Source: a virus
Lineage: Duplodnaviria; Caudoviricetes
DNA: 64,000 nucleotides
Virus record (IMG/VR): IMGVR_UViG_2731957839_000001
Location: 1,546 to 65,545 of that record
Direction: 5' to 3' (one strand)
Part shown: positions 4,364 through 60,213 of the stretch, one piece after another
How the letters are laid out: every line of letters begins with the position of its first letter
Position numbering within the stretch: the stretch's first letter is position 1
Translations under genes and position numbers: made by a program
The notes under the pieces: model-generated
The model's input: the letters and a program-made list of their open reading frames with translations, nothing else
Database searches by the model: none
What the model was told of the DNA's origin: nothing

Positions 4364-4384
4364 AATAATAGCATTGCGTTTATT
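4364..4384. promoter_or_regulatory. Palindromic operator-like site 1 (upstream of lysis cassette)
   Basis: AATAATAGCATTGCGTTTATT; minus strand contains extended -10-like TGCTATTAT. Confidence 0.75.
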
Positions 4385-4778
4385 TTACCCCAATCGAAGG
4401 AACTTGGCGCGCGATGTTGTAACTCGACCCGCCACCGATGCGCACACCCTGGTACAGCAAGATCGCTCGCATTTTCGGCACCCCTTCCGCGATCAGTGCA
4501 CGGTAGAAAACCTCATCACAAATCGCCCGGGTGTGTTTGCCATTGCGGTACAGGTAGTCATGCACCGTGGCGGCCTTGTTGCCGTACCCGACCAACAGCG
4601 CATAAAGCCAGAACAACAGTGGCGTGTTCAGGCACTGGATGCTGGCGAAGTCGGTGCCAAAGCCAGCCGGCACTTTCACCACCCCGACCAAATCATCGAG
4701 AAAGATCAATTCATCGAGCAACTTGTGGTCCCACTGCGCCACTTCTTCGGTGCGCAGGCTAGACAGGAACTTACTCAT
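4380..4778 (-). CDS. DUF1353 family protein
   Basis: VPAGFGTDFASI...AATVHDYLY...CDEVFYRAL...YQGVRIGG. Confidence 0.85.
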   Translation of the reverse strand: MSKFLSSLRTEEVAQWDHKLLDELIFLDDLVGVVKVPAGFGTDFASIQCLNTPLLFWLYALLVGYGNKAATVHDYLYRNGKHTRAICDEVFYRALIAEGVPKMRAILLYQGVRIGGGSSYNIARQVPSIGVK

Positions 4779-5347
4779 TCAGGCCACCCTTCTTCGAGCA
4801 TCGATTCGGTGTAGGTGTCGCTCTGCACTGCGGCGATTAGCTCCGCTTCCCGGTCAAAGCAGGACTGGACGTGCGCTCGCACCGCTTGTGACACAGCGGC
4901 CAAGGTGGCGGCATTCAACTCGACAAACCCCACCGGGGTTTTCCAGTTACAGACGTAGCTGGGATCGAGCACCGAAGCCAGTGTGGCCCCGGTGATCAAA
5001 CCCTGACTGTCACGTCCGGTGTCGATGGCCAAACCATTGAAGGTAATCCCTCTGGTTTCCTCGGTGTAACGGCGATCGGCGATGTCGTGCTTGAGTTGTT
5101 CGGGAGTACGTTGCAATGACGCTGCAATGGGGCCATGCACCCCCGCCATAATTGCTTCGTATAGTTCGACCCCGTGGACTTCACAGTCATGCGGGGAGGC
5201 GGTGAAAGGAATCCACCCATGCGCAACATGCTGGATTTCACAGTCAATAGCCCCCCCATTACCATGCCGTAAGTTACGAACCCCCACAAAGGTGGGTTGA
5301 GGAACTCCAACTTCCTGTGGGGGCGATACAGGTAACTCACTCATCAT
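4775..5347 (-). CDS. Tail fibre assembly protein (DUF4376-like C-terminus)
   Basis: GWIPFTASPHD N-domain; RRYTEETRGITFNGLAIDTGRDSQ...HVQSCFDRE; follows the fibre gene. Confidence 0.75.
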   Translation of the reverse strand: MMSELPVSPPQEVGVPQPTFVGVRNLRHGNGGAIDCEIQHVAHGWIPFTASPHDCEVHGVELYEAIMAGVHGPIAASLQRTPEQLKHDIADRRYTEETRGITFNGLAIDTGRDSQGLITGATLASVLDPSYVCNWKTPVGFVELNAATLAAVSQAVRAHVQSCFDREAELIAAVQSDTYTESMLEEGWPE

Positions 5348-7080
5348 GAAACCCTCAACATTATAGTACCGCAGTTGTTATTAGCTGGACCCATTGCCTT
5401 CCAACTGCCGAAGTTTGGAGTGCCATAGTTCTGGCTCTCAGCATCGGTGTAGGCGACCTGGTTACCACCGAAATAAGTACCCGCGCCATAGTTAGTACCG
5501 GTGATGTTTTTCATAAAGGCATACGCACCCACACCAAGAGGGGCAGTCTCGGAAACCTTGGTGATTACATTGCCGATTTGCATGTAATTGGCCACCAAGA
5601 AGTTACTTAGGTAACCTCCCCATACAGCACCGCTCACATTCCCATCGTTTTGGTAGACGGATGCTCCGGCCCAAAGGTGGGTTCTGGCGGCGCAGGTTCC
5701 ATCAGCTAGAATGCGGAAGTTGCTAGCGTTCCCCCCGTTATCAAAATACAGGGTGGTATCATTGACCTTCATGGTCATAGAACCACGCCAGGCATTCCCA
5801 GCCGCGTTAATAGTCCCGATACTGGTCACGCCGTCCGTGATGGCAGCTATGTTGCTGCCGTAACAAGATATGTTAGTGCCACTAAGTGCGCCTTGTGCAG
5901 AGATATTACCGAGCGCACTGATATTAACCGCAGCGCTAAGACTAGCCAGAGTAAGGTTGGCATACGCTGCTAAACCTTGGTTGTACAGCCTGAATTCGTT
6001 AGCAGCCCTTAACTGAAGACTACCTGCGTACCCGCCCGGTTGATGGAATCCAAGCGTAGGAAACACCGTGTTAGCGGCGCCGTTCCCTTGAATTTCTACC
6101 CCTCCAGTAGAGAAGTCGTTTCCTGAACCTGTCCCGATTATGTGGTTGGCGGAGATACCACCAGACACGTCACGACTTACTATCGTATTTGGGGTAGCAA
6201 CGTAAACCGCTGTAATCCTCGCCGAGTTGGCCAAGCTATTGAGCTGCCCTTGGACCTTTGCAAACGCACCCATTACCGTGTCAGTCGCTGCCACCGCCGT
6301 GTTGGTCCCGACCAGATAACCAGCAAGCACCGTCCCGCGGACATTAGTCGCAAAGTTACTGGCTACATCGCTGATCTGGCTCTGTAGCTTGCCCAGACTG
6401 GAGAGCACAGTGTCCGTTGCTGTGATGACCGCGTTAGTAGCCGTCGAAAGGCCGGTCAGCGTGATCGCACGTACGTCTGTTGGTAGGTCGCGCCAGGTCT
6501 TGGTGCCGGCATAGAACTTGTTCACCGTGTCCGCCACAACGGTCGGCTCTTTGCCGGCCAGTGCGTTGGTCACAGTGGCCGCGAAATTCGGGTCATTGCC
6601 CATGGCCGCGGCCAGTTCATTCAGCGTGTCCAGCGCCCCCGGTGCTGAGGCAATCAGGTTGGCAATCGCCGCCTGGACAAACGCTGTATTCGATGCCTGC
6701 TGGGAGTTGGTACCCAGTGCCGCTGTCGGCACCGTTGGAATCCCCGAGAACGCGGGACTAGCCAGATTGGCTTTACTGTCCAGCTGCGCCTGAAGATCAC
6801 CCGCCGTCAGCGCCTGATAGCAGAAGGCAACGCCGGACCATGCCACCGCCGCGGTGCCTTCTTGCCCGCGCGTAACGCCGGTCAGTTGAAGGCCAGCGCG
6901 CGCGGTGTAACGGATGATCTCGACCTGACTCGGTTTGGTCGGGCTGTCGGCCAGGATCAGCACACCACCAGTAGTCGGTGGCAACTGAAACGGCGCTACT
7001 GCGGCAAGCACCGTGATCTCGGTGGCGGCCGCACTCAATGGCAGCGTCAGCTGGCACTGGACGAAGTTTGCATAGCTCAT
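5344..7080 (-). CDS. Tail fibre protein
   Basis: KANLASPAFSGIPTVPT and APGALDTLNELAAAMGNDPNFA fibre motifs; start MSYANF at ATGA overlap (7080). Confidence 0.9.
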   Translation of the reverse strand: MSYANFVQCQLTLPLSAAATEITVLAAVAPFQLPPTTGGVLILADSPTKPSQVEIIRYTARAGLQLTGVTRGQEGTAAVAWSGVAFCYQALTAGDLQAQLDSKANLASPAFSGIPTVPTAALGTNSQQASNTAFVQAAIANLIASAPGALDTLNELAAAMGNDPNFAATVTNALAGKEPTVVADTVNKFYAGTKTWRDLPTDVRAITLTGLSTATNAVITATDTVLSSLGKLQSQISDVASNFATNVRGTVLAGYLVGTNTAVAATDTVMGAFAKVQGQLNSLANSARITAVYVATPNTIVSRDVSGGISANHIIGTGSGNDFSTGGVEIQGNGAANTVFPTLGFHQPGGYAGSLQLRAANEFRLYNQGLAAYANLTLASLSAAVNISALGNISAQGALSGTNISCYGSNIAAITDGVTSIGTINAAGNAWRGSMTMKVNDTTLYFDNGGNASNFRILADGTCAARTHLWAGASVYQNDGNVSGAVWGGYLSNFLVANYMQIGNVITKVSETAPLGVGAYAFMKNITGTNYGAGTYFGGNQVAYTDAESQNYGTPNFGSWKAMGPANNNCGTIMLRVS

Positions 7081-7394
7081 TTGTCGCGCACCTTCACTTT
7101 GAATTCGACTTCTTTTTGGCGGTCTTGCTCGGTCACCACCACGCAGGTCACGATGTAATCCACATACTCGGTGCCCCCTCCAAGCCAAAGCTTGAAGCGC
7201 ACCGGCTGATCCCCGAACAGGGTGTAATTCGGATGGGGGATCGGTCCGAGGATCAGTGTCGGAACGGGCTCGCTGGTGCTGCGGATCGTAATGTCCACCC
7301 GCTGGATGTCGTCGCCGGGTACATCGCTAAACCACGCCGCCATGTCCACGTCGTAGTCGAGGACATCGTTCGGCTGTTTGGTAAATGTCGTCAC
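7077..7394 (-). CDS. Fibre-tail adaptor-like protein
   Basis: FTKQPNDVLDYDVD...KLWLGGG...Y.VTCVVVT pattern; next to the fibre gene. Confidence 0.7.
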   Translation of the reverse strand: MTTFTKQPNDVLDYDVDMAAWFSDVPGDDIQRVDITIRSTSEPVPTLILGPIPHPNYTLFGDQPVRFKLWLGGGTEYVDYIVTCVVVTEQDRQKEVEFKVKVRDK

Positions 7395-7403
7395 GGGGTG
7401 TCC

Positions 7404-8657: not shown

Positions 8658-9062
8658 TTAGGCCAGGGTGACGGTGAGCGAACCGACCGGGAACGACAAC
8701 ACGTCGGTCGGATCAAGAGTTTTCGGGTTCAGCATCGGCGCGTGATAGAGCAAGTTGCCAGAGTTCTGCGCGTCGAAAATACCCCAATGGGTGATGTTGA
8801 CCTGCACGTCGACAATCGGTGGGAACACCAGGTTACGAGTATTGCTGGTCGCGCCGTTCGACGGTGCAGTAAAGCCATCCGACACCACAGTAGTGTGCGC
8901 GCGTTGGCGGACATACGAGCTGTCGTTCAGTTCGGCGCCGGTACCAGCATCGGTTGGGTCAGATTTGAACAACGCCACGTAGACGCTGCCGCCGGTGTAA
9001 GTGCCGCCGCGCAGGGTGGCACTGACCAAAGTGTTTTCGAGGTAATCAGAAAAAGCCGACAT
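8658..9062 (-). CDS. Tail fibre-associated structural protein
   Basis: MSAFSDYLEN...YVALFKSDPTDAG...ITHWGIFDA...GNLLY pattern; GGAG RBS. Confidence 0.75.
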   Translation of the reverse strand: MSAFSDYLENTLVSATLRGGTYTGGSVYVALFKSDPTDAGTGAELNDSSYVRQRAHTTVVSDGFTAPSNGATSNTRNLVFPPIVDVQVNITHWGIFDAQNSGNLLYHAPMLNPKTLDPTDVLSFPVGSLTVTLA

Positions 9063-9100
9063 CGCGCACTCCAAGTAAAGGAAGGCGCGACCGTGCGCAT

Positions 9101-9121
9101 ATTAATAGCAGTGCGTTTATT
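9101..9121. promoter_or_regulatory. Palindromic operator-like site 2
   Basis: ATTAATAGCAGTGCGTTTATT, intergenic; shares the CCGTGCGC flank with site 1. Confidence 0.75.
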
Positions 9122-9126: not shown

Positions 9127-12100
9127 TCATTTGAGCGCCCCAAACAGCGTTTTGTTTTGGCTCCAGATCGGGATCATCTGGCGCAATTTCTCACCGTCAT
9201 CCTGCGCGCCGAACAGCATGTCCACTTTGCCCGCCACCGGAGAAATCGAGCCCCAGATACTCATGCCCCATTCCTGCTGCTGACGCAGGTTGCTCAAAAA
9301 TTCCAATGGCCCAAGGCCGCCGGCGCGGCTGAAAGTCGCACTCAGGTATTCGAGACTGTCGGCGTATTCCTCACCGGGGCGGCCGTTGAGCCGACGCAGC
9401 CAGTCACGCAGCTCCAGCGACGCAGCGGCCAGCGGCATCACTGCAATGCCGAAGATAATCGCCGGCATGGCGATCGCCACCGCCTGCCCGAACTGCTTGG
9501 GATCGAGGTGCTTCCAACGCTGACGCATTTCGCGATACATACCGCCGAGCACGGTGTCGCCATAGGTATAAAGAAAATGCTTCAGGTGCCAGGCCATCTT
9601 CAGGTAGGGATTGTTGCCCCAGTGGGTTGCCTGAAACTTGCTCGGATTAAGGGTCGCTTCGTTAACGAACTGGTTCAGCGCCTCGCCCATCTTGGCTGCT
9701 ACCGCCTGCTGATCCGGTGCCAATTCCGGACTCCAGGCCGGGCGCCCTGCTGCATCCCACGCCAGCACAGAACCGGCATCGATGTTCAACTGGTTCAGCG
9801 CTGCATTATCGTTGTTCGCTGCCGCATTCAGCAGGTAACGCACGCCGATGCTGGTGGCCAAGGTGCGCGAGGTGCGGACGATGGCTTCGTTGCCGTTGAG
9901 GCGGAAGAACCAGCTCTGCATCTTGCTGATCGTCGAGCTCTGGTACTGCTCACCCGTCATCTGCCACATGACCTGCTCCGACGCTTCGGACAGCACAATG
10001 CCCATGTCGCGGGCCAGTTGCTTGGCCTGCCGGTAGTCACCCACCGCATCGGCGATACCGACCTTTCCGCCGCCGCGAACCAGCGGCAGCGCCAGTTCCG
10101 GGATCGAGGCCACACCGGAGAATGCCAGCACGGTCATGCCGACCCAGCCGGTGATGAACTCTTGGGTGTTGCGCCACCAGCTCGGCATCGACTGCCCTGC
10201 CGGGTGACGACCCAGCGCCCCATTGACCAGCGCCATGACTTCCTGGGCCGCCGGTTCACCATGATCTTTGCGCACCTCATCGAGCAACGCGTGGAACTTG
10301 GTGTTCGGGCCGAACTTGGGCCGCACCTTACCGTCCACCGACTCGAACTCGCCCGCCACCGGGCCGCCGAACACAGACTCCCACGCCGCGCGTTTGCCCA
10401 CCCCGTCGACCCAGTGGAACAAGGCCGCATCGTGCTTTTTCAGCAGCCAGCCACCCTTCATCAACTGATCCAGGCCAACGGCCTCAACCAACTGGCGGGT
10501 CGTCTGGTGCACACCGACCGGCAGCCCCGGCGCGATCACGCCCTCCAGTACACCCGGGCCGTGCAGAATCCGGTCCACCATTTGCCGAACTTCAGTGGGC
10601 TCCAGCTTCAGCTTGTCCGCCAGCAATTGGCTGAACTCCGGCTGGCGATCGCCCACCATCTTGCGGTCGAAGGCCACCGGGGCAAAGTTTTGGCCCAGGT
10701 CTACCGAGCGCAGGCCGCTGCGCTTCGCTTCGGCCACCAGTGCATCGATGACTGTGCGGATCTTCTGGCCACCCGCCGTGGTTGGCCTGCCGGTATAGGC
10801 ATCTTCGAACGCCGCCTGCACCGCCAGATCGCGCTCCGCGCGCGAACCTTTGTGCTCCGAGTGCAGAGCGCCCAACAGGGCGTCGACCTGCGACATCATC
10901 CGGCCTTTAATCGCCCGGCTGCGCTGTTCCCAGCTCTGGCCAAGCACCGAAGGCGCGGCATTCGCTGGTTGGAACAACGCACGCGAAAGGGTCTCGTTGT
11001 AGCGAGCGATGCGGCTGTAGACCATGCTGAACAACGGCGCAGCCTGTGGCAATACCCCTTTCTTCCAGAACGCATTGGCCCGAGTCTTGAGCAATTGCGT
11101 CTGCGCTGTAGCTGCACGCACGTCCTGCGTACCAGAGGCATACCGCACCACATTCCACTGTACCGAGCGGCGCGCTTCCTGGACTGTGCCACCTACCAGC
11201 GGCCCCGGCGATTTCACCGCTTCGTATTGACCTGCGAACAGGCTCTTGGCGAAATTGCGGAACGCGGGATTGGTTTCTGCCGATGTGCCGATCAGCGTGG
11301 TCCAGACTTTTTTCAGGTGCTTGAGCAGCGAAACCAACACCTGATTGATCAGCCCGGCGTCCTCTTTGGTCAAGGTGTCGGCGTTCTCCATCACCGCCTT
11401 GGCAAATTGGTCAGCGAACCACTCGTGCTGCAAGTGCTCGTTCGCATCCACCCCCACATCTGCCTTGATCGCTGCCAACAGCTCATCGTGGTGTTCAGTT
11501 TGCAGATCGTTCCACACCGTGTCCTTCACGACGTGGCCCAGTTCGTGCGCCAGATCAGCCAACTGATGCGCGCGGGCCATCGCCCCCTGACGCTCGGCGA
11601 CCACCAGGTGCGCAACGCCGTCTTGCATGAAGTAGAACGAATCGCCACTGAGTGCACTGTCGCGTACCCGGTGCGCGGCACTGTCGTCCAGGTCCAGACG
11701 GCGGATCTCGCTGTCTACCGTGGCGCCTTTGCCCAGTACCATGACGCGCAGTTCCGGCAGCGGCACACCCACTTTGCGCAGTTGATTGATCAGGTCGCGG
11801 AAACGGGTGTCGGCCACACGATCGGGGGCCTGTTTGGCAGTGAGCACTTTCGGGCGCTCCGTCGGCGACTTGGTCGAGGCCAATGTACCGGGGGCTTTGG
11901 CTTCTGCGATCAAGGCTTCCAGTCGGGCATCCTGCATACGGTCTTCAAGATCACCGATGGCCTCATCGCCGAAGCGCGATAAAGGGCCTTGGTCGTAGAC
12001 ATTGAATTCAGGGTCGATGTCGTTCAGCGACGACGCACCACGCCCGGGAGTGTCCACGCTGTCCGGGTCCTGCTGAATGCCGGCGGTGCGCTGCCCGCCA

Positions 12101-15100
12101 CGCAGGGTATTCTCGATGGCACGCGGGGTGGCCTCATCGCCCAGCTTGGCTGCAACGATCTGCTCATCAGTCGGTGCCTCACGCTTGGCACCGTCCGCCG
12201 CGAGTTGCGCCGATTCTTTGGCCAGTCGGGAACGCTCGCCCAGCAACGCTTTGTACTGGTTGAACGCCTCATCCACGGAGCCCTTGCCCGCTTTCAAGCG
12301 ACCCAGTTGATCCACGGCGGCGCGCAGCGGCGCATTCACCTTGCGATCCGGTTTGCGGTAGTAGACCTGCCGACCCTCGGCCGTCATGTACTTTGCGCCG
12401 GTGAGCATCTGCCGCCACAAGGTGATGGCCTCACGCACCGACGGCAGGTGCATCGAGTCAGCCGCGTGGACTTCGAACTCGCTCGCCGCGTCGGCCAAGT
12501 CATCCGCCAAGGTGTCGATCTCGTTGGACAAGGTATCGAGGCGCTTCTGCACTTCGGCCTGGCGCAGCTTGGCATTGGACTCGGCACGGCGGTCGGCCAG
12601 AGCCTCACCAAAGGTCACCGCCCCGCCCGTCACCGGGTCGACGAAGATCACCAGGTCGTCCGGGATCTTGCGCACCACCGCACGCGGCGTGTCGCCCAGC
12701 GCATCGTGGGAGTTCTGTGCACCGGTCATCAGCCGCGTGATATTTTCCAGCAGGTTGGCGGCCGCTTCCGCCGGGTTGCTCGGTGGACGCTCGCCGCCTT
12801 GGGCAAAATTGGCCAGCCCCACGGCATCGATTACCCGACCGAACATGGTGCCGTCGAACATCGGCAGGGCCAGCAGGTTCTTGCCGGCAAAGCGCTGAGT
12901 GATGGTCTTGGCCAGCGCATTGCCGAATTCCAGCGCCTTCAGTTGCTCAGCCGATGGCAGCACGGCCAGTGTCCAACCGCGCACCGCCAAGGCCGACATA
13001 CGCCCGAAGAACGTCGCATCAGATCCTGCTTGCTCGCCCAGGATCATGCCTTCGTGTTCGTTGACCGCCACGCTGTCACCGCGTCCGGCATCGTGGCCTT
13101 TGGTGGTGGCCGTCAATTGACGCTCACCAGAGCTCTGGTCTTCGTACAGCGTTACCAGTGAAAGGTCATCCAGCGCCGTGGTGCTGGCCATACGCTGCAA
13201 GGTGTCTACCAGCCCACGGATCGCACCGTCAGGGTTGGTGGCCAAGGCCTTCATGGTCGCCTGCAAATTCTCCTGATCGGTCGCCGCGAGATCATTCTGC
13301 CGGGACAGCACAGTCAGCAGCCCACGCGCGGCACGCCCATCGGTGTTTTTCACCAGTTGCTGCATGCCCCGCGCGACATCCAGCGACTGGCCGGCGGCCT
13401 TGGTCATCAGCTCATCAGTCACGCCGGCGGCTTTTGCCACGGCATTAATCAGCGGCCCAGCTTCCATACGCGGGTCCAACTGCACCGCCGCATTGATCAG
13501 GCCGCCCAGTTGCCGCGCCGTGCGCAAGGTACTCGACTCTTGCTCGGACAAAACCGGCACTGCCTCCGGCTCACCGGCCTTGACGATTTTGGCCAGCGCT
13601 TCCATGTACAGTGACACACCCGAAGGCCAGCCATTCTTGGCCTTATCGCTCAGTGGGGTCGCAGCCACCAACTGGAGCAGGCGAGCGTCTTCGGAATCGA
13701 GCACGGACGGATCAAACTCAACGGTGCCGACGGTCTCGTGGGTGCCCTCCTCGTCACTGTCATCCATACGGCTCTTGCCAATACCGTAAGCGGCTTTTTC
13801 TGCCACAGCGTCATGCAACAAGGACAGGAACGATTCGCGGTTTTTGCCACCGACATCGATGTCCATGTTCTTCAGCGTCTGCTCCAGCAGAACGCGCTCG
13901 CCGTTTGGTTGTTTCTCGATGGCGCTCTCGATGTGATCCCGGTTGCCGACCTCGCCCTCGGGGGTGGCAATCAACCGGCGCAGCAACGGTGTGTTGAACA
14001 CGGCATCACGAATCACATCAGGCTGCGCTTTCTGTGCAGCAGCTGGTGGTGCGGAATCCAGATCCACCGCCGGGGTGGGAAGCGCTGTCGGGGTAGAGCT
14101 GCGGGTCTTAATCGCCTCGCGCAAAGCACCCAAGGCCACGCCGCCCTCGTGCTTCAGCTCGAAGGCGCGCTGGATCTTCTGCGCCTCAGTTGCTGGCAAC
14201 TGATCCACGGCTTTGGCAAACGCCGCCGGGCTGCCAAACTTGTCGGTCACCAGCTCGTTGAAGCGATCGTGCAGCAGGTCGCGGCCACGGATCACACTGC
14301 GCGAGTCATAGTATTCACGGGTCAGTTCCGCCGGCGGGACATCCAGCAGCTCGGCCAGCGGTTCCAGCGAATCGAGCCGGCGCTGTTTGTTGCCGGGTAC
14401 CGATGCTTTCAACCCGCCTTTGGCACGGTCGAGCACTGCCTCGCCCAAACCGGTTTTGACGTAGTGCTTGAGGTCGATGCCGAGCTCTGCCGCTTGGGCC
14501 AGATCCTCGCTCATGTCGCGCGGTGCCGCTTTGGCTTTCGCGGCCTGCTCGATCTTGCCCTCTTCGGTCCGACGCGCGATCACCTGCTCCGGAGTGGTTT
14601 CAACGATGCTGGCTTCGGGAAACTGCTGTTTGTAGCGCTCAGCAACCTGGGCGGCCATGGATTTGCCGACCAATTGCTCACCGACCACCGCGCCATCGGC
14701 GGTATGGGCCTGGACGACCACTGCCCCAGCTGGGTCGGCCATCGCCTCTGCCTTGGTCTGGGCAAACCCCAGCAGGCGCTGGTTGTCGGCTTCAGTCGGT
14801 GCCACCGGCGCAGCATCGAGCTCAGCCTGGGTATTGGCGACCTGTACATGCCCGCCATCGATGACCCGGGCCACTTTGCCCGCTTTCTGTGCCACCTGCA
14901 TTGCGGCGTCGGCGTTCTCCGCCGTGAAGTGGCGCAGCTGGCCCTCGGGAATCTGCTGGATCTGCGCATGCAGGTCTTTCAGCGGCTCGGCGGCCGTAGC
15001 AGTCACATTGTCATTCGCCTGGCCGGTGTAATCCGCCGCCGATGCTACACCTCCCACGGTGCTCACGGCGCCTTTGACACCCGCACCCGCCACCGCACCT

Positions 15101-16431: not shown

Positions 16432-16480
16432 GAAAAAACCCCGTGTTAGATGCTGGTCAGTATATCACCGGCACACGGGG

Positions 16481-16501
16481 TTTAATCGCATTGCGTTTAC
16501 C
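16481..16501. promoter_or_regulatory. Palindromic operator-like site 3 (upstream of giant protein)
   Basis: TTTAATCGCATTGCGTTTACC; followed on the minus strand by extended -10 TGATATACT. Confidence 0.75.
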
Positions 16502-22900: not shown

Positions 22901-22930
22901 ATTATACGCATTGCGTTTATTTATAGGCAA
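22901..22930 (-). promoter_or_regulatory. Capsid promoter TTGCCT-N18-TATAAT containing operator-like site 4
   Basis: Palindrome ATTATACGCATTGCGTTTATT (22901-22921) fills the spacer and overlaps the -10. Confidence 0.8.
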
Positions 22931-27917: not shown

Positions 27918-27938
27918 AATACACGCAATGCGTTTATT
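27918..27938. promoter_or_regulatory. Palindromic operator-like site 5 (terL-portal gap)
   Basis: AATACACGCAATGCGTTTATT. Confidence 0.8.
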
Positions 27939-30280: not shown

Positions 30281-30310
30281 ATTATACGCAATGCGATTAT
30301 TTAATCACAA
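30281..30310 (-). promoter_or_regulatory. terS promoter TTGTGA-N18-TATAAT containing operator-like site 6
   Basis: Palindrome ATTATACGCAATGCGATTATT (30281-30301) in the spacer/-10. Confidence 0.8.
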
Positions 30311-33715: not shown

Positions 33716-33736
33716 GTTACTCGCAATGCGATTCAA
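33716..33736. promoter_or_regulatory. Palindromic operator-like site 7 (abuts RBS)
   Basis: GTTACTCGCAATGCGATTCAA followed by AGGAGGA-TTT-ATG. Confidence 0.6.
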
Positions 33737-35058: not shown

Positions 35059-35097
35059 AAAACACGCATTGCGTATTAATCGCTGTGCGAGTACGAT
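35059..35097 (+). promoter_or_regulatory. Early promoter TTGCGT-N17-TACGAT with operator-like site 8 over the -35
   Basis: AAAACACGCATTGCGTATTAA (35059-35079). Confidence 0.75.
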
Positions 35098-37465: not shown

Positions 37466-37932
37466 TGCAGACCCTGAAACCCGAGCTGCTGGCCATCGTC
37501 GACACCATGTCGGCCCACCTCGCCCAGCAACGCGCCCGTGCCTACGCCGATGGCTGCAAGTACCGCGACAACGACGGCCGCATGTGCGCCGTGGGTTGTC
37601 TGATCCCCGACGAGCTCTACGCCCGAGAGATCGAGGGCGGCATCACCACCATGTTCCACAGCGTCGACATGGAGTACGCCTCCACTCACCGCCCCCCGGT
37701 GGTATCCCATCTGTGCAGCCTTGCGCCGTCCCTTGAAAGGAACTCGCTGAAGCTTTTCCTCGACCGTACGCAGATTTTTCACGACGAAGATCACGGCATC
37801 GATAAGAACAGTTACGTCGGCATCCTCAACGCTGCGCCACCCGACATCAGCAACGATGACCTCGCCGCTGTGATCAAGACCGAGTTGGTCCGCCGCCTGA
37901 GCACCAGTCCACTCGACACGTGGCTGGAATAA
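37465..37932 (+). CDS. Hypothetical protein (CxYR...CAVGCLIPD family)
   Basis: CKYRDNDGRMCAVGCLIPDELY...QIFHD motif. Confidence 0.7.
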   Translation: MQTLKPELLAIVDTMSAHLAQQRARAYADGCKYRDNDGRMCAVGCLIPDELYAREIEGGITTMFHSVDMEYASTHRPPVVSHLCSLAPSLERNSLKLFLDRTQIFHDEDHGIDKNSYVGILNAAPPDISNDDLAAVIKTELVRRLSTSPLDTWLE

Positions 37933-37949
37933 CACGCATTGCAATTATT
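37929..37949. promoter_or_regulatory. Palindromic operator-like site 9
   Basis: ATAACACGCATTGCAATTATT at a gene boundary. Confidence 0.65.
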
Positions 37950-38798: not shown

Positions 38799-38827
38799 CG
38801 CAGTTACACGCACTGCGTGTAACTGCG
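38799..38827. promoter_or_regulatory. Operator-like site 10: perfect 29-bp palindrome
   Basis: CGCAGTTACACGCA-C-TGCGTGTAACTGCG just before the AAGGAG RBS of 38847. Confidence 0.8.
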
Positions 38828-42797: not shown

Positions 42798-43238
42798 ATG
42801 AACACCGTACTCATTCAAGGCGGCCGCACCTTGGACCTCGAACGCCTCGTCGACCTGTACCAGCGCCAAGGTCGCTCGGCAGAGAACATCGCCAGGGAGA
42901 TAGGCCACAGTCCCAACACGGTGCGCCGCCATCTGCGCGCGGCTGGCGTCGAGCTCGGCCCACAAGGCCAGCACCGGCTGATCACCGACGAATACGTGTC
43001 GCTCACCTTGAAGATGCGCGCCGAAGGCACGAACTGGGAGGACATCGCCGAGAAGATCGGTTTCTCAACCCGGGCACTGCAACGCGCGGTCGCCAAGTAC
43101 GCCCTGAGCGCCTCGATGGCCCGCGAAACGGCGCTGCAAGCCCGACTGAACAGCGCGGATCAGGAGATCGATGACCTGCGCCAACGCATCGACAAACTTT
43201 CGGTGGCGCCCGTAATGTCCCATTCGGGACGTCAGTGA
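42798..43238 (+). CDS. Tandem HTH protein
   Basis: SAENIAREIGHSPNTVRRHL and NWEDIAEKIGFSTRALQR. Confidence 0.75.
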   Translation: MNTVLIQGGRTLDLERLVDLYQRQGRSAENIAREIGHSPNTVRRHLRAAGVELGPQGQHRLITDEYVSLTLKMRAEGTNWEDIAEKIGFSTRALQRAVAKYALSASMARETALQARLNSADQEIDDLRQRIDKLSVAPVMSHSGRQ

Positions 43239-45265: not shown

Positions 45266-45286
45266 AATAAACGCATTGCGTGTATC
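45266..45286. promoter_or_regulatory. Palindromic operator-like site 11
   Basis: AATAAACGCATTGCGTGTATC, overlapping TATCAT -10-like hexamer. Confidence 0.75.
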
Positions 45287-45312: not shown

Positions 45313-45729
45313 ATGAAAGCACCTGTGAAGCACTACACCATCCAACCCGGGCAGTCGGTGCACAGCACGTACTGCTCAACCCTGATTGTTGACAGTCAGG
45401 AAGGCCCTATCACACATCCCGGAAGCTTTTCTGTCCGTGGGGACAACTTAAAAGTGCACCTTTTCCATGGCCGCTCGTCGATTGGCGAGGACATGGAAGA
45501 CTGGGGTTTTGACGGCCCCACCTTCAACTGCTTGAGCGTCGCTCACGACCCTGATCTGGTCCTCTTGCAAAGTGCCTGCGGCCCCAGCCTAGAGCTTGCG
45601 AAGCGTATGGGGCTGTCCATCCACGACGACACAATCAGTATTCCCTACACCGAGGATTTGTTGTCGATCCCACGCTTCCGAGACGATAACCCTGCATTTT
45701 TTGGGGATTTTTCGATCAACGGCATCTAG
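45313..45729 (+). CDS. Hypothetical protein
   Basis: LHLFHGR...MEDWGFDGP-type motif; followed by hairpin 45733-45753. Confidence 0.65.
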   Translation: MKAPVKHYTIQPGQSVHSTYCSTLIVDSQEGPITHPGSFSVRGDNLKVHLFHGRSSIGEDMEDWGFDGPTFNCLSVAHDPDLVLLQSACGPSLELAKRMGLSIHDDTISIPYTEDLLSIPRFRDDNPAFFGDFSINGI

Positions 45730-46850: not shown

Positions 46851-47407
46851 TGAACCTGATCGGCCTGATCGGCAAAGCCCGGGTCGGCAAGGACACTGCG
46901 GCCGAGCACCTGCACATGTGGCATATGTTCAACCGTTACGCGTTCGCCGCACCACTCAAGGATATGCTCAGCGCTGCCTTTGGCCACGATATTGGTGAAG
47001 CAGACGGCGCCGCCAAGGAACAAGTGATCGACTGGCTGGGCAAAAGCCCGCGCCAACTGACGCAGCTCCTCGGTACTGAATGGGGTCGCAACTGCGTCCA
47101 CCCCCAACTGTGGACACTACTTGCCGAACAACAGTGGATTCACTGCCAACGTGGCCTTTCCCACGGCCTGGTGATCAGCGACGTTCGCTTCGACAACGAG
47201 GCCGAATGGATTCTCCAGCAGGGCGGCACCCTGATCGAGATCACCCGCGGCACCGCCGCCCCAGTGAACGCCCACGCCAGCGAAGCCGGCGTCCACTTAC
47301 GCTATCCCCGGTTCATGGTCAGCAACGACGGCACCCTCGACGAGCTGTATAGCGAACTCGATCGCATCGTTTTTCTGCTGCCCACCAATACACGCATTGC
47401 GTCTTAA
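46850..47407 (+). CDS. Deoxynucleoside monophosphate kinase
   Basis: GKARVGKDT P-loop, FAAPLK, RQLTQLLGTEWGR, ISDVRFDNE, HASE. Confidence 0.9.
   Translation: MNLIGLIGKARVGKDTAAEHLHMWHMFNRYAFAAPLKDMLSAAFGHDIGEADGAAKEQVIDWLGKSPRQLTQLLGTEWGRNCVHPQLWTLLAEQQWIHCQRGLSHGLVISDVRFDNEAEWILQQGGTLIEITRGTAAPVNAHASEAGVHLRYPRFMVSNDGTLDELYSELDRIVFLLPTNTRIAS
47387..47407. promoter_or_regulatory. Palindromic operator-like site 12
   Basis: AATACACGCATTGCGTCTTAA in the last codons of the kinase, next to the GGAG RBS. Confidence 0.75.
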
Positions 47408-47419
47408 ATGGAGACCTGC

Positions 47420-48310
47420 ATGAAATCGAAAGCATTGTTGATCATCGCCCTGTTGGGCGCTTCGGCTCTGGCCCACGCGGCTGCCCCGGCCTCCCTGAAC
47501 TTCTGCTCCGGCGGCAAGGGCGGTTTCTACGAATCGTTGGCCGAGACAATCGGCAAGAAGATCGTCAAGGACACCCCCACTGAACTGCACGTCCTCAACA
47601 CCGGCGGCTCGGTGGAGAACGCGCAGAAGATGAAGGCCGGCAAGTGCGACATCGCCGTCATTCAGGCCGACGTAGTCAGCTCCGGCGTGTTGCCCAATGA
47701 CGTCAAGGTCACTGACGCACACACCGAAGTGGTCTATTGGCTGCACGGCAAGAGCGGTGTCGACGACTTCGGCAAGATGGAAAAGGACTCGATCGCTGCC
47801 AAGTACGCCTTCGCCTCGGTGCAGGGCTCCGGCGCCCTTACCACGGTGAAGAACTGGATCAAGACCGACAAGGATTACGAGGGCGCCCGCGTCATCGAGT
47901 TCGACAACTGGTACAGCGCGGCGGAAGCCGTGGCCCAGGGCTTCACCACCACCGAAGCCGGTGTGCGCATCGAGATCGCCGGCATGCTGTACATCGGCCG
48001 CGCCGGCAAGATCAGCTCGGACATCACCGAGGACTTCGGTACCCAGATCCTGATCGGTGAGGTCAACGACGATTCCTTCGCCAATAGCAAGGACATCAAC
48101 GGCAACCCGCTGTACAGCCATTGCGACATCGACAAGCTCGGCATGTCCGGCTTGGAGAGTTCGACCATGGGCAAGCCCGATACCTACTGCGTCCGCGCCC
48201 AGCTGGTCTACAACAACGCCTGGCACCAAGGCCTTTCGGCGGATGACCAACGTGACGTGCGCCGAGCCGTCGACAAAGGCATCAACAGCACCGTGAAAGC
48301 GGTTCGCTGA
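47420..48310 (+). CDS. TAXI-type periplasmic solute-binding-like protein
   Basis: Signal peptide; SGGKGGFY, NTGGSVEN, CDIAVIQAD, HTEVVY, GSGALTT. Confidence 0.75.
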   Translation: MKSKALLIIALLGASALAHAAAPASLNFCSGGKGGFYESLAETIGKKIVKDTPTELHVLNTGGSVENAQKMKAGKCDIAVIQADVVSSGVLPNDVKVTDAHTEVVYWLHGKSGVDDFGKMEKDSIAAKYAFASVQGSGALTTVKNWIKTDKDYEGARVIEFDNWYSAAEAVAQGFTTTEAGVRIEIAGMLYIGRAGKISSDITEDFGTQILIGEVNDDSFANSKDINGNPLYSHCDIDKLGMSGLESSTMGKPDTYCVRAQLVYNNAWHQGLSADDQRDVRRAVDKGINSTVKAVR

Positions 48311-48510: not shown

Positions 48511-48813
48511 ATGGACAAGCAAATCAACCACCTCATGGCGTTTGCCGAACGACTCCTGCTGCGCGACGACATCAACGAACTGACCCAGGCTCTGGAACAC
48601 GGTGTGCTCGCCGAGTGCGAATGCGACGCCGATGCCATCGCCGTCCTGTCCGTCAACTTCGCCTCCTTCGTCATGAGCCTGGGCAAATCGCCTCGGGAAC
48701 TCAACAGCATCACCGCCCTGGTCGGCCAGCTCGTCAACGGCATTGCCCAGAACCGCCACCGCCAACTCATGGGCCAGTGCGACTACGTCATGCCCTCCGC
48801 GACGGTGCACTGA
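48511..48813 (+). CDS. Hypothetical protein
   Basis: GGAG RBS; 100 aa. Confidence 0.6.
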   Translation: MDKQINHLMAFAERLLLRDDINELTQALEHGVLAECECDADAIAVLSVNFASFVMSLGKSPRELNSITALVGQLVNGIAQNRHRQLMGQCDYVMPSATVH

Positions 48814-48814
48814 T

Positions 48815-49966
48815 ATGAAGATCCTTGGCGAAGACTACCTGCTGGTGACCTTGGACTTCGAGTCCTACTACGGCACCGGCTGCACCCTGACCAGCCTCAA
48901 CACGTTCCAGTACCTGAACCACCCCGAGTTCACCATCCACGGCGTGGGTGTGCAGCTCGACGATGGCCCAAGGCAATGGTTCCGCGACACGGCTGATGCC
49001 ATCGCCTACATCGAGGACGAGGCCTGCGACACGCTGATCGCGCTGCTGTGCCAGAACACCCAGTTCGACGGCATGATCCTCCACCACTTCTACGACTGGC
49101 ACCCCGACCTGTACCTGGACACCCAGTGCATGTCCAAAGGCCTGTTCCCGACCGAGTCGGCCAGCCTGGAGAAACTCTGCGAGCGGCTATGGCCCAACGA
49201 CCTGTCGATGCGCAAGGGCAAGGAGCTGGTGCAGTTCCGTAACGTCACGACTCAACAGTTGTATGCCAGCGAAGCGATGCTCGCGGCGATGATCAAATAT
49301 TGCATAGGAAACGACAAGAAAGACCAAGGCGACGTAGGGCTGACCTACGAGGCTTTTCTGCGCATGGAGCCTCATTATCCCGATGATGAGCTGCGCTTGA
49401 TCGACCTGCACATCCGGATGATGTGCAACCCAATTTTCACACTCAACAAGGACCTGGTCCAAGAGTGTTACGACGAAGGCGTGGAGAAACGCAACGCGCT
49501 TCTCAAAGCCGCCGGCGTCGCCACCACCACCCTGAGCTCCGACACCAAGTTCGCCGCCTACGTGCGCGACAAGTTGGGCATCACTCTGCCGATGAAGCCG
49601 TCACCCACAGTCAAGATCAAAGTCCTCGATGCCGAGGGCCGCGAGACCGGTGAGGAAGTGCCGAAGATGATCCCGGCATTGGGCAAAGCTGACATGGGCT
49701 TTCAGGAAATGCGCGCGCACCACAAGGAGCACGAGCACATCTGGGCAGGACGTGTGGCGGCCAAGTCCACCGGCGAGATCACCCGTGCCGAACGCTTCCT
49801 GGAAACCGCCGACCAGTGCCACGGGATGATGCCGGTGTGCCTGAACTACTATGGCGCCCACACCGGTCGCAGCTCAGGTACCGAGAAACTCAACCAGCAG
49901 AACCTGCGCCGCGGCTCCAAGCTGCGCCGGTCGCTCAGCGTACGCACAAGGCAGGTGGCGGTATGA
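48815..49966 (+). CDS. Family A DNA polymerase, N-terminal part (3'-5' exonuclease + thumb)
   Basis: LDFESYY ExoI, QNTQFD ExoII, YC...DV ExoIII; YYGAHTGRSSG...NQQNL. Confidence 0.85.
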   Translation: MKILGEDYLLVTLDFESYYGTGCTLTSLNTFQYLNHPEFTIHGVGVQLDDGPRQWFRDTADAIAYIEDEACDTLIALLCQNTQFDGMILHHFYDWHPDLYLDTQCMSKGLFPTESASLEKLCERLWPNDLSMRKGKELVQFRNVTTQQLYASEAMLAAMIKYCIGNDKKDQGDVGLTYEAFLRMEPHYPDDELRLIDLHIRMMCNPIFTLNKDLVQECYDEGVEKRNALLKAAGVATTTLSSDTKFAAYVRDKLGITLPMKPSPTVKIKVLDAEGRETGEEVPKMIPALGKADMGFQEMRAHHKEHEHIWAGRVAAKSTGEITRAERFLETADQCHGMMPVCLNYYGAHTGRSSGTEKLNQQNLRRGSKLRRSLSVRTRQVAV

Positions 49967-50883
49967 CCGTTCAATTCGATCCCACATTGGTAGCCGACGC
50001 CACCCGCACCGCCATTACCGGCGACCAGCTGGTGTACGTGGTCGACTCCTCTAACATCGAGGCACGGGTATTGGCTTGGGTGGCCGGTCACCAGACCCTA
50101 CTCCAGCAGTTCCGCGACAAGGAAGACGTGTACATCAACTTCGCCACGAAGGTGTACCAGCGTCCGCTGACCAAGAAACTCAACCCGCTGGAACGCCACG
50201 TCGGCAAAACCTGCGTACTTGGCCTGGGCTTTCAGGTCGGCTGGAAAAAGCTGCAATCGTCCCTGGCCACCAACGACCAGTTCCCGATGTACATCGAGGA
50301 GCCGGACTGCCGGCACATGGTCAACCTGTACCGGGCTGACAACGCGCCCATCGTCAATTACTGGGCAGAGGCCGAGCTCGCGATCTTCGACATGTTCATG
50401 GGCAACGAGCGCCAATGGGGTGCCCTGCGTATCTACAAGAACGCGCTGATCATGCCTAACGGCATGGCGTTGCAGTATCCGCACCTGCGCCACTCCGAAC
50501 CGGATGAACAGGGTCGCATCGGCTGGGAATACTGGAACGGCAAGTTCTTCACCAACCTCTACGGCGGCAAGCTGACGGAAAACATCGTGCAGGCGCTGTC
50601 GCGCATTGTGCTGTTCCGCCAGATGCTCAAGATCGACACCCTGCTCATGTCCCGCGGCGGTCGCGTCGCGCTATCAGTGCACGACGAAGTGGTCGGGGTC
50701 GGCCCGAGCTTCGGTGCCCTTTACCTGGGCGTCGGTGCCGATGGCAAAGAGATCTGGTACGACACCAAAGGCGCCGATGAAGTGTTCGCCGACATGGTCG
50801 GCATCATGCGTACCCCTGAACCCTGGTGCCTCGACCTGCCGCTGGATGGTGAAGGCGGCTACGCCTTCGAATACAGCAAATAG
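49963..50883 (+). CDS. Family A DNA polymerase, C-terminal part (palm/fingers)
   Basis: DSSNIEARVLAW motif A, RHVGKTCVLGLGF motif B, ENIVQA, VHDEV motif C; own RBS and ATGA overlap. Confidence 0.85.
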   Translation: MTVQFDPTLVADATRTAITGDQLVYVVDSSNIEARVLAWVAGHQTLLQQFRDKEDVYINFATKVYQRPLTKKLNPLERHVGKTCVLGLGFQVGWKKLQSSLATNDQFPMYIEEPDCRHMVNLYRADNAPIVNYWAEAELAIFDMFMGNERQWGALRIYKNALIMPNGMALQYPHLRHSEPDEQGRIGWEYWNGKFFTNLYGGKLTENIVQALSRIVLFRQMLKIDTLLMSRGGRVALSVHDEVVGVGPSFGALYLGVGADGKEIWYDTKGADEVFADMVGIMRTPEPWCLDLPLDGEGGYAFEYSK

Positions 50884-50921: not shown

Positions 50922-50942
50922 TATACTCGCACTGCGATTAAT
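50922..50942. promoter_or_regulatory. Palindromic operator-like site 13 (before primase-helicase)
   Basis: TATACTCGCACTGCGATTAAT between TATACT and the GGAG RBS. Confidence 0.7.
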
Positions 50943-57081: not shown

Positions 57082-57105
57082 CATAACACGCAATGCGATT
57101 ACCGT
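57078..57105 (+). promoter_or_regulatory. Promoter TTGACA-N16-TACCGT containing operator-like site 14
   Basis: ATAACACGCAATGCGATTACC (57083-57103) in the spacer. Confidence 0.75.
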
Positions 57106-58137: not shown

Positions 58138-58165
58138 TTCACAATACACGCAATGCGTTTACACT
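58138..58165 (+). promoter_or_regulatory. Promoter TTCACA-N16-TACACT containing operator-like site 15
   Basis: AATACACGCAATGCGTTTACA (58143-58163). Confidence 0.75.
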
Positions 58166-58955: not shown

Positions 58956-59039
58956 TGTAGCGATGCAGTGACCCCGCAGGATGCGGGGTTCATCGGAAAG
59001 CCCCCGGCTTTACCCATGAACCCCATGCGTGGCCCCCTC

Positions 59040-59450
59040 ATGAACGAACACAGTTTCATTCGCAGCATCCACAAAAAACTCCCCATCGATGTGTACGTCT
59101 GGAAGATCAACGACAACTACCAGGGCGGGGTAGCCGACGCCTACTACTCTCGGCTAATGGGCGGCGACATGTGGATCGAGTACAAGTACCTTAAGGCGCT
59201 ACCCAAACGCCCCGACACCGTGGTGCAGTTCGGCCTCAGTGAGTTGCAAAAGGAATGGCTGAACGGAAGACTACTGGACGGACGTACAGTATCTGTTATA
59301 GTGGGCAGCCCCGACGGTGCTCTGATTCTTACTGATGGGGATTGGAACAAACCGATGACTGCCTGTATTTTTAAACGCAATGCGGTTGAGACTCCGGCGA
59401 TTGTGGCTTATATTCTCTCCACATTAAGTAAATACTTAATTGAAGATTGA
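59040..59450 (+). CDS. VRR-NUC / Holliday junction resolvase-like nuclease
   Basis: MNE...GVAD...WIEYK...LSELQKEWL. Confidence 0.8.
   Translation: MNEHSFIRSIHKKLPIDVYVWKINDNYQGGVADAYYSRLMGGDMWIEYKYLKALPKRPDTVVQFGLSELQKEWLNGRLLDGRTVSVIVGSPDGALILTDGDWNKPMTACIFKRNAVETPAIVAYILSTLSKYLIED
59370..59414 (+). promoter_or_regulatory. Repressor promoter TTGAGA-N17-TATATT with operator-like site 16 centred just upstream of the -35
   Basis: TTTAAACGCAATGCGGTTGAG (59370-59390); -35 at 59386-59391, -10 at 59409-59414. Confidence 0.7.
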
Positions 59451-59465
59451 ATAAGGTACTACCGG

Positions 59466-60143
59466 ATGGCTACCCCACGCAGAACGATCACGCCGCACGA
59501 TTTGGATAATGCAGCTCGGCTGAAATCGAAATGGCTCGCTTATAAAGAAGCCACAAAAACAACACAAGCGGACCTGGCGGAGTATCTGGGTTTTGCGGGT
59601 CAAGGGGTGGTGACGCAGTACCTGAACGGTCTCATCGCCCTCAACACTGATGCCATTATCCGCTTCGCGCGGGTGCTTGGTGTCAAACCCGAAGAAATTA
59701 ACCCGGATCTCGCCGGCATCAGTATCACCCCGACAGACATGCGTTTAGTCCGTATCCATATACTGGCAAACCTGTCAGGCGCACCGCCGGGGCGACACGC
59801 TGGCATCGAGATCGCGACAACAATGGATATGAAGCTTTACGCAGTAGCTGTAGACATCGACGGTTCCGAACCTTTTGCACGTAAAGGCTCGACCCTGATC
59901 GTGAGCCAGGATGAAGAACCAGTCTCGGGGGACGAAGTCTTCATGAAGTATCGCGTGGGGGACACTGACCTCCATGCGATTCGCATCTACGTCACCACGG
60001 ACTTGGAACGCGGCGTTGCAATCACTCGGGGCCTGGACTCGAAAGAGTTCCTTGAAACGAACCTCTCTGACATCGAGTTGCTTGACCCGATCATCAGCGT
60101 GGAACGCCCTAAAGTGGCACGACAGAAGCGTGAAGTAGTTTAA
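59466..60143 (+). CDS. CI-like repressor (XRE HTH + degenerate S24-like domain)
   Basis: TQADLAEYLGFAGQGVVTQYLNGLIALN...FARVLGVKPEEINP. Confidence 0.88.
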   Translation: MATPRRTITPHDLDNAARLKSKWLAYKEATKTTQADLAEYLGFAGQGVVTQYLNGLIALNTDAIIRFARVLGVKPEEINPDLAGISITPTDMRLVRIHILANLSGAPPGRHAGIEIATTMDMKLYAVAVDIDGSEPFARKGSTLIVSQDEEPVSGDEVFMKYRVGDTDLHAIRIYVTTDLERGVAITRGLDSKEFLETNLSDIELLDPIISVERPKVARQKREVV

Positions 60144-60158
60144 CCCGCATTAGAAGTC

Positions 60159-60184
60159 AGCCCGGGTCACGCCGGGCTTTCTTT
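60159..60184 (+). terminator. Intrinsic terminator after the repressor
   Basis: AGCCCGG-GTCACG-CCGGGCT-TTCTTT. Confidence 0.75.
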
Positions 60185-60192
60185 CGCCTCCA

Positions 60193-60213
60193 TAAACACG
60201 CATTGCGAGTATT
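60193..60213. promoter_or_regulatory. Palindromic operator-like site 17 (before the xis/int operon)
   Basis: TAAACACGCATTGCGAGTATT. Confidence 0.75.

Follow-up and report, generated by a model that had tools for sequence, protein, structure and literature searches.

Dispersed palindromes as probable operators of a lambda-type repressor in a prophage of a Pseudomonas-like host

Introduction

A stretch of 64,000 nucleotides from the IMG/VR record IMGVR_UViG_2731957839_000001 (positions 1,546 to 65,545; Duplodnaviria, Caudoviricetes), referred to below as the window, carries one and the same palindrome at the boundaries of lysis, structural, replication and integration genes, and this raises the question of which protein reads it and to what effect. 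The window is part of contig C62 of a 6.42-Mb genome, and nearly all of it is one prophage, whose host looks like a Pseudomonas-like bacterium and whose virion genes look podovirus-like. The left arm, on the minus strand, carries virion and lysis genes, including tail fibre genes, and the right arm, on the plus strand, carries early and replication genes (family A DNA polymerase, primase, exonuclease and helicase). An earlier note, made from the letters alone, had proposed that one repressor acts directly on many promoters through these palindromes.

The analysis presented here points to a dispersed operator network of the prophage's own lambda-type repressor, some of whose sites would act by occluding promoters, others probably as roadblocks and one probably in autoregulation. 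This reading, drawn from sequence comparison, is judged probable. The design is known from other phages and is not described for this phage group. The decisive comparative evidence, at the level of sequence, is that the site switches together with the repressor among related phages while the positions of the sites stay.

Distribution of the palindrome

All 17 palindromes listed in the earlier note are present, each with the core GCA-N-TGC at its centre, and of 20 symmetric positions they match at between 10 and 20. Seven exact copies of the core ACGCANTGCGT stand in the window, where shuffled sequences lead one to expect 0.21, and the 21-mer with up to three mismatches occurs eight times against 0.00. 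The functional core of this type, called class I below, is given as 17 bp, TAMACGCA-N-TGCGTKTA. A weight matrix made from the 17 sites picks up two additional weak copies, one at C62:19782 to the left of the window and one centred at 35085 (score 15.7), which lies 16 bp from 35069 and forms with it the only tandem pair among the window sites. In all, 17 strong and two weak sites are dispersed over about 62 kb on both arms of the prophage. Their location almost exclusively at gene boundaries, as had been claimed, is borne out by the count: 16 of 18 centres fall in non-coding DNA, and by the gene list and start-codon choice adopted here such DNA accounts for 6.5% of the prophage.

The enrichment over the host chromosome that had been expected is likewise found. 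The whole genome contains 17 exact cores, seven of them in the window, which is 1% of the genome, and a reversed-pattern control gives eight. With at most two mismatches, the 17-mer TAMACGCANTGCGTKTA is found at 16 places, of which 14 lie in the window, one lies 675 bp to its left in the same prophage and one lies elsewhere; at three mismatches the host background dominates (56 places versus 77 in the control). The 17 sites are also the top scores of the weight matrix in the genome (19.6 to 33.4 versus 19.2 for the best match elsewhere), a ranking that is circular, the matrix having been built from those sites, yet still shows the host to be devoid of comparable copies.

The possibility that the sites belong to a host regulator and were borrowed by the prophage is hardly credible. 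Certain other genomes within the genus contain exact cores of the form AACGCAATGCGTT, scattered over four to five places, and may have a host-level site of this form, which is the point in its favour. The ten cores outside the prophage, though, are about as many as the reversed pattern yields (eight genome-wide), and no full site lies outside the prophage. The top matches are phage-specific and, in the relatives described below, the sequence of the site shifts along with the phage repressor, and for these reasons a host regulator was rejected as the binder.

In a survey of 401 genomes of the genus, in which the unpublished genomes G374, G151, G099 and G371 enter the background tally only, the background of the core is about seven per genome, close to the control. 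An excess of ACGCANTGCGT over the reversed control was observed in G343 (16 versus 2), G211 (14 versus 1) and G301 (11 versus 1). Neither a portal homologue nor a full-length repressor homologue was found in these three genomes or in G203 and G165, the last giving an N-terminal-domain-like match only, and the cores of G165, G343 and G211 are scattered over the genome and unclustered; the excess-core genomes are thus not related prophages. A literature search by motif strings found no description of this palindrome or of the second one introduced below, and the literature on stoperators and Pseudomonas, judged by titles, gave no account of such a phage.

Co-variation of site and repressor in related phages

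Three relatives were compared with the window: G403, an IMG/VR provirus fragment of 42.7 kb without the left third, whose repressor is 84% identical to that of the window; G402, a viral contig of 64.6 kb rated complete; and G401, a viral contig of 47.9 kb, the repressors of the latter two being 48% identical. In G403, class I sites number 13 (control 0), and the second class is absent. That second class is another 17-bp palindrome, TATCAGC-N3-GCTGATA, which occurs 19 times in G402 and 14 times in G401 (controls 0), where three-mismatch class I hits number only two and one, respectively. When the central triplet is left free, a second count gives 24 sites in G402, 17 in G401 and 13 in G403. In an unbiased count of dyads the motif is the top dyad in all four temperate phages.

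The sites have changed in sequence and kept their places. G402 is collinear with the window, and a class II site stands at the orthologous junction for 13 of the 17 window sites in G402 and for nine in G401; in G403, a class I site does so for 12. The distances to the start codon are near-identical across the relatives, for example 85/87/87 nt. Class II sites were also found in the metagenome contigs L027, L029, L030 and L031, whose repressors are 47-51% identical, and beside the 71%-identical portal genes of L049 and L050. On the protein side, all eight class I proteins have the same recognition helix, GQGVVTQYLNG, where the class II proteins have SQSM[VI]S... The product of the gene at 59466-60143, which the earlier note had named as the protein to examine, accordingly comes out as the best candidate binder on sequence grounds, with a CI-type N-terminal domain and a helix that changes together with the site in the relatives. 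Taken together with that homology and with phage specificity, the switch of the site sequence with the repressor leads to the reading of the palindromes as repressor operators.

No third operator class was found in scans of viral contigs with P0016, P0018 and P0036, taken from a set of repressors of intermediate identity (51-60%), and scans of genome contigs with the repressor gave only distant proteins in Endozoicomonas, Rouxiella and Yersinia and no clear site array. The distant matches are either restricted to the N-terminal domain (43-51% identity; L007, L009, L010) or extend to residue 164 (31-35%; L006, L008). The closest isolated phages are themselves distant, namely Aeromonas phage phiA008 (TerL 47% identical) and the KPP25/phiR18 group (TerL 39%), the capsid gene DNA of the latter group being about 78% identical. 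Neither phiA008 nor KPP25 has a dyad above shuffles or a repressor homologue, which at such distance lends weak support.

Of separate note is the state of G401, in which tblastn with the window's portal, terL and major head proteins gave no match, and which still holds 14-17 class II palindromes; it may be a decaying prophage with its operator set retained.

The candidate repressor

The 225-aa product of the repressor gene matches Pfam HTH_3 and a PHROG annotated as transcriptional repressor. It has 36 homologues in a large protein collection, almost all from metagenomic assemblies, and in a phage collection its relatives cover the N-terminal domain only and carry the annotation CI or DicA. 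Over residues 1-83, the profile made from 22 homologues aligned with lambda CI structures in the PDB (1rio_A, E = 2.3e-13; 1lmb_3, 1.1e-12; 3bdn_A, 1e-11). The AlphaFold model has a mean pLDDT of 82, and Foldseek places it with N-terminal-domain chains of lambda CI at TM scores of 0.75-0.87 (chain-normalised), rmsd 1.3-2.5 A and 32-33% identity. The model also resembles the full-length lambda repressor 3bdn_A (E = 2.9e-8) and the LexA structures 3k2z and 3jsp, and compares with the lambda C-terminal domain (2ho0, 2hnf, 8gmu) at TM scores of 0.56-0.59 (chain-normalised), which is likeness at the level of the fold. The N-terminal domain is thus clearly homologous to the DNA-binding domain of lambda CI (1LMB, 3BDN).

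In lambda, Gln44 reads operator position 2, an adenine, and Ser45 reads position 4, as described in the literature on 1LMB. The Gln aligned with Gln44 is invariant here, and so, in both site classes, is the base pair at operator position 2 (A/T, at plus or minus 7); the residue aligned with Ser45 is Ser in class II, whose sites have C at position 4, and Gly in class I, whose sites have A. This pattern is a lead that fits the proposed contacts and does not amount to a test of them.

The gene is co-directional with int and lies beside it, 24 kb from the tandem early operators, and the palindromes flank the gene and its promoter. The absence of a divergent cI/cro pair, remarked upon previously, is confirmed by this arrangement.

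Two other regulators were considered as binder. The early arm encodes a LytTR-domain protein (41932-42291) and a dual-HTH protein (42765-43238; HTH_23, HTH_38 and a sigma70 region 4-like match). Both are absent from the three relatives, and therefore neither is the common binder. For the first early gene, 35129-35482, no family was recognised, and its only look-alikes are viral proteins without a name.

Promoter and ribosome-binding-site context

The candidate operators were compared with sigma70-like promoters by a strict scan in which promoter-like elements are scored out of 12. All three 10/12 hits of the window are found at sites, two of them at 30291 and 22911 and one adjoining 59380, and a 9/12 hit lies at 58153. 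All the hexamers quoted in the earlier note are present, yet its promoter assignments stood only in part: TTGCCT-18-TATAAT, TTGTGA-18-TATAAT and TTCACA-16-TACACT pass the strict rule, and TTGACA-16-TACCGT and TTGCGT-17-TACGAT fail it. Its proposal that late promoters are included agrees with the terS and capsid operons. Each is preceded by a good sigma70-like promoter whose spacer holds the palindrome, a layout kept in the relatives.

The promoter layouts are kept in the relatives although the palindrome inside them differs. Ahead of terS, the order of a hairpin with a T-run, TTGCCx, palindrome and GATAAT/TATAAT is preserved in G403, G402, G401 and L049. At the position of 58153 the relatives have TTGTAA-16-TAAAAT (G403), TTGCGA-16-TACACT (G402) and TTGAGA-16-TACAAT (G401), and the repressor promoter reads TTGCGA-17-TATATT in G403 and TTGATA-17-TATATT in G402 and G401. 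In all four phages, the centre of site 59380 is some 41 nt upstream of where the repressor transcript is predicted to start. Ahead of the primase gene, G402 and G401 have TGGCCA-17-TAGTAT, with the -10 in the upstream arm of the palindrome. By a looser promoter score, the gene direction is favoured at 49 of 69 sites versus 20, these being orthologous sites and so not independent, and in the average over sites TG is weakly favoured at -18/-17, a signal confined to the upstream side.

Such features could also suit a palindrome that activates or defines promoters of lytic growth, either from the spacer in the manner of MerR or from -41 in the manner of CI at PRM. The two best late promoters have over-long spacers of 18 nt that contain the site, site 59380 is at the activator-like distance of -41, the polarity of the sites (see below) tracks gene direction with the weak TG signal beside it, and no late activator was found. 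Against this, the centre of the site varies relative to the predicted -35 and -10 (about -17, about -19, over the start, or -41), a variation that operators typically show and a promoter element does not; several sites adjoin ribosome-binding sites (RBSs) and have no promoter-like context; and the phage-collection homologues of the N-terminal domain bear repressor annotations, CI or DicA. An activating role is therefore regarded as improbable.

Symmetry and polarity of the sites

The palindromes could also function as nucleic-acid hairpins, that is, as terminators, RNase sites or hairpin promoters, of which phage N4 is a case. A stem of 9 bp with a loop of 3 nt is possible, sites lie at gene ends, and two of the 17 (35077-35061 and 58167-58150) are flagged as terminator-like by a T-rich tail; the other 15 have no T-run. 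The arms, moreover, do not compensate for one another. In 30 class I sites the paired arm cells number 216, compared with 213.7 when the right arms are shuffled, and as many or more are obtained in 677 of 2000 shuffles; among the 38 class II sites they number 250, which is lower than the 257 of the shuffles. The core deviations at 4374, 9111 and 37939 are uncompensated. What is conserved is the sequence and not the pairing, and arms without co-variation imply that the sites are not hairpins, the half-sites behaving as independent copies of a protein-binding sequence. Hairpins, terminators and N4-like promoters were accordingly rejected, and a reading of this kind is very improbable. In the 2434-aa protein of the left arm, no RNA-polymerase-like domain and no Pfam hit were found.

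The two halves of the sites are not equally conserved. The half that lies upstream relative to the genes is the better conserved, with 14.5 versus 11.9 bits, a difference reached in 2 of 2000 random flips, and the class II sites show polarity in the same direction (17 of 2000).

Weighing of the repressor reading

Several findings weigh against the view that the palindromes are operators of the lambda-type repressor, or narrow what it can explain. The polarity of the sites is not itself required by a symmetric dimer. Over the whole window the strict scan returns 13 promoter-like hits and does not exceed chance (shuffle means sum to about 17), and only three of 18 sites overlap such an element, with one more adjoining one; at least three sites (33726, 47397, 50932) and their orthologues adjoin the RBS of the next gene. 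The C-terminal domain of the repressor has no Pfam Peptidase_S24 hit, its PDB profile alignment spans the N-terminal domain only, and no invariant or near-invariant Lys that could serve in a Ser-Lys cleavage dyad was found beyond residue 100 among the 22 homologues. The pattern CTGT-N8-ACAG, an SOS-like box, is absent from the window; induction may not proceed through RecA-driven self-cleavage. No Cro-like gene was found beside the repressor gene. A strict palindrome screen found no site in L026, a contig of 1.9 kb with a class I repressor, or in L028. Finally, the co-variation comprises two specificity classes only, in genomes that differ throughout, so that another conserved protein might be the binder instead.

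This last point leads to the proposal that another conserved phage regulator, Cro-like or a timing factor, mainly binds the sites or shares them with the CI-like protein. Many proteins common to all four phages diverge in parallel with the site class, several of them without a known family (35129-35482, 38433-38783, 45313-45729 and 58968-59450), and the existence of only two site classes, as well as a polarity that could reflect a second factor, would accord with it. None of those proteins, though, has a DNA-binding domain in Pfam or PHROGs. It is the CI-like protein that has the right domain, and the palindromes flank its own gene and promoter. The sites, furthermore, share their geometry and an initial TA with the lambda operators described in PMC10742460. 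A different regulator is considered unlikely.

The repressor reading thus remains the preferred one, with a narrower scope than had been proposed. The claim that one repressor silences many promoters fits the layout at terS and the capsid operon; it finds no such support at most sites, only three of 18 overlapping a promoter in the strict scan, and the position of 59380 suits autoregulation, as at lambda PRM, and not silencing. That some sites adjoin RBSs was confirmed for 33726, 47397 and 50932. As the end of the site touches the RBS there, these are not ordinary promoters of the next gene.

Proposed mechanism

The repressor, with its CI-type HTH N-terminal domain and a LexA/CI-like, beta-rich C-terminal domain, would bind as a dimer, one half-site per subunit. 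With some 18-19 sites over about 62.8 kb, almost every transcription unit would start with one. At terS, the capsid operon and 58153, and probably at the lysis genes, 57093 and 35085, a repressor bound on the spacer, -10 or -35 would exclude the host RNA polymerase. At 33726, 47397 and 50932 it would more likely block readthrough in a stoperator-like manner, or cover a start site inside the operator. Site 59380 may autoregulate the repressor promoter, as OR2 does at PRM in lambda, and 60203 would gate the excisionase-integrase unit.

A more far-reaching view of the lineage is speculative and is held with considerable doubt. In it, the single lambda-type repressor would be the only dedicated transcription regulator, the host sigma70 promoters or junctions of every operon, those for late structural and lysis genes among them, would be gated directly, with no late control of the N, Q or activator type, and new types of immunity would come about by replacing the recognition helix and about 19 operators together, each site keeping its junction.

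Comparison with known regulatory systems

The operators of lambda are the closest in form. The consensus of its six operators, TAtCACCGCcaGTGaTA, is 17 bp long and twofold symmetric and starts with TA, in the operator description of PMC10742460. Both site classes of the present phages are similarly 17 bp around a central base with a TA start, and class II shares TATCA...TGATA with that consensus (PMC10742460). The position of 59380 next to the -35 of the repressor's own promoter likewise recalls lambda PRM. The overall layout differs: the six lambda operators form two tripartite clusters that flank a divergent cI/cro pair, an arrangement absent here, where the sites are dispersed and late operons are included. 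The late genes of lambda are controlled through N and Q. A further difference is the C-terminal domain, which here lacks a Pfam S24 match and an invariant Lys.

In distribution, the sites are more reminiscent of P1 and of actinobacteriophages. The C1 protein of P1 is one repressor with many scattered operators in a Gram-negative host, yet the 17-mers it uses are asymmetric, and C1 is not known to be CI-like. The precedents named in the earlier note are asymmetric, but a symmetric one exists as well: the repressor of phiC31 of Streptomyces reportedly binds palindromic inverted repeats of about 17 bp at about 18 dispersed intergenic positions. The phiC31 system differs in its actinobacterial host, siphovirus morphology and unrelated repressor family. 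A further precedent for dispersed sites is SPbeta, where the SPBRE repeat at intergenic promoter regions was predicted in silico long before ChAP-seq demonstrated binding by MrpR, at about ten promoters (PMC10516654). As characterized in that source, MrpR has a tyrosine-recombinase-like fold and binds a 15-bp element at fewer sites, mostly at genes of unknown function, in a Bacillus phage.

The cluster A mycobacteriophages (L5 gp71, Bxb1) have 20-30 repressor sites genome-wide, in short intergenic gaps, some in promoters and most outside them, and heteroimmune relatives have a consensus matched to their repressor, in the account given by PMC6550527; there the stoperators are asymmetric and oriented with transcription. 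The present prophage is similar in having 18-19 sites, part of them in promoters, and two site classes that match two repressor classes. Its sites are palindromic with a polarity that is quantitative only, and so are not stoperators as defined; it also differs in its lambda-CI-type repressor, for which lambda CI and LexA were the nearest matches by structure and sequence, its Gram-negative host and podovirus-like virion genes.

Lambda-type repressors are the textbook case of control through two operator clusters, and here a homologue appears to be wired to nearly every unit in a phage of a Gram-negative host, in a layout that was worked out experimentally mainly in the actinobacteriophages with their stoperators, P1, phiC31 and SPbeta. 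If the more far-reaching view of the lineage given above is true, it is a natural experiment on an operator network and a repressor that change specificity in step. The two site classes at identical junctions form a testable pair for asking how the specificity of immunity shifts along with some 19 dispersed sites, whether palindromes can serve as roadblocks, and whether late genes can be controlled in the absence of a late activator. The two 17-mers and the repressor family would furthermore allow related prophages to be grouped by immunity from sequence alone.

Features of the prophage

The candidate operators and the genes, promoters and hairpins around them are collected in Table 1.

Table 1. 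Candidate operators and other features of the window. Sites are named in the text by their centres; positions after a contig name are those of orthologous sites, class II in G402, G401 and L049.
Feature	Position	Strand	Remarks
Endolysin-like gene	3728-4144	minus
61-aa holin-like ORF	4141-4326	minus
Candidate operator 4374	4364..4384		48 nt upstream of holin-like ORF and endolysin-like gene; overlapped by TTGGGG-17-TATTAT; G402 5076, G401 43170
Head-protein gene	8658-9074	minus
Candidate operator 9111	9101..9121		Between 2434-aa gene and 8658-9074; G402 10166, G401 38796; 37/37/38 nt to start codon
Gene of 2434-aa protein	9127-16431	minus
Candidate operator 16491	16481..16501		Upstream of 2434-aa gene; G402 18419
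Major head protein gene	21596-22744	minus
Candidate operator 22911	22901..22921		In spacer and -10 of TTGCCT-18-TATAAT (22930-22901, minus), upstream of major head gene; G403 38963, with TTGCCC-18-TATAAT
Portal gene	25737-27899	minus
Candidate operator 27928	27918..27938		Best-scoring copy (33.4); between terL and portal; G403 34052, G402 27660, L049 5970
terL	27947-29731	minus
Putative terS	downstream of site 30291	minus	Assigned by position only; no PHROG match
Candidate operator 30291	30281..30301		In spacer and -10 of TTGTGA-18-TATAAT (30310-30281, minus), upstream of putative terS
Terminator-like hairpin	30332-30315	minus	Precedes site 30291
Candidate operator 33726	33716..33736		1 nt ahead of AGGAGG-N5-ATG of gene 33746-34237; no promoter-like context
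Candidate operator 35069	35059..35079		First of tandem pair, head of rightward early arm; tandem pairs also in relatives: G402 35789/35806, G401 30672/30690
Candidate operator 35085	35075..35095		Weak second copy (15.7); in spacer of TTGCGT-17-TACGAT, which fails strict scan
Candidate operator 37939	37929..37949		Upstream of gene 37973-38395
Candidate operator 38813	38803..38823		Most symmetric copy (20/20 positions); upstream of 657-aa gene 38847-40820; G403 22082, G402 39486
Candidate operator 45276	45266..45286		Upstream of gene 45313-45729; G403 15849, G402 45845, G401 20378 (37/35/44 nt)
Candidate operator 47397	47387..47407		Overlaps end of dNMP-kinase-like gene; RBS of gene 47408-48310 directly next
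Candidate operator 50932	50922..50942		22 nt before primase start codon, adjoining its RBS; G403 10710, G402 52100, G401 12969 (22/24/22 nt to start)
Candidate operator 57093	57083..57103		After helicase gene, within TTGACA-16-TACCGT, which fails strict scan; G403 4746
Candidate operator 58153	58143..58163		In spacer of TTCACA-16-TACACT (58138-58165, plus; 9/12)
Candidate operator 59380	59370..59390		Weakest of the 17 (19.6); adjoins -35 of repressor gene promoter
Predicted repressor promoter	59386..59414	plus	TTGAGA-17-TATATT, 10/12
Repressor gene	59466-60143	plus	225-aa HTH protein
Terminator-like hairpin with T-run	60159..60178	plus	After repressor gene; kept in G403, G402, G401
Candidate operator 60203	60193..60213		Heads orf78/excisionase-like/integrase unit; G403 1849, G402 61331, G401 2747
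Unit of orf78, excisionase-like ORF and integrase	60218-62028	plus
Tyrosine integrase gene	60790-62028	plus

A direct repeat of 12 bp is found just past the integrase gene (62069-62080) and at C62:19753-19764, 704 bp left of the window, and is tentatively put forward as a candidate att core, by which the prophage would measure about 62.8 kb; the chance expectation for such a repeat in that comparison, about 0.3, keeps the assignment from being firm. The weak palindrome copy to the left of the window (C62:19772-19792) lies 18 bp inside the left repeat.

About 28% of the length of the 2434-aa protein can be aligned to G402 and G401. Between its start and site 16491 (16432-16480, minus) a long-looped, GC-rich inverted repeat of 8 bp is followed by TTTTTT directly before the ATG, and G402 has a different hairpin there. 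No protein family was found in Pfam or PHROGs for the minus-strand ORF 34402-35022, which overlaps a repeat-rich stretch. The family A DNA polymerase is present as two overlapping ORFs (48743-49966 and 49816-50883), both matching PHROG 17, and the split appears to be conserved in the relatives.

Two genes on the plus strand, 23031-24149 and 44078-45196, are low in GC, the surrounding 2 kb having values of 0.54 and 0.47 versus about 0.60, and look like acquired cargo. The former lies on the opposite strand within the head operon and has a weakly HNH-like N-terminus, and the latter is followed by site 45276.

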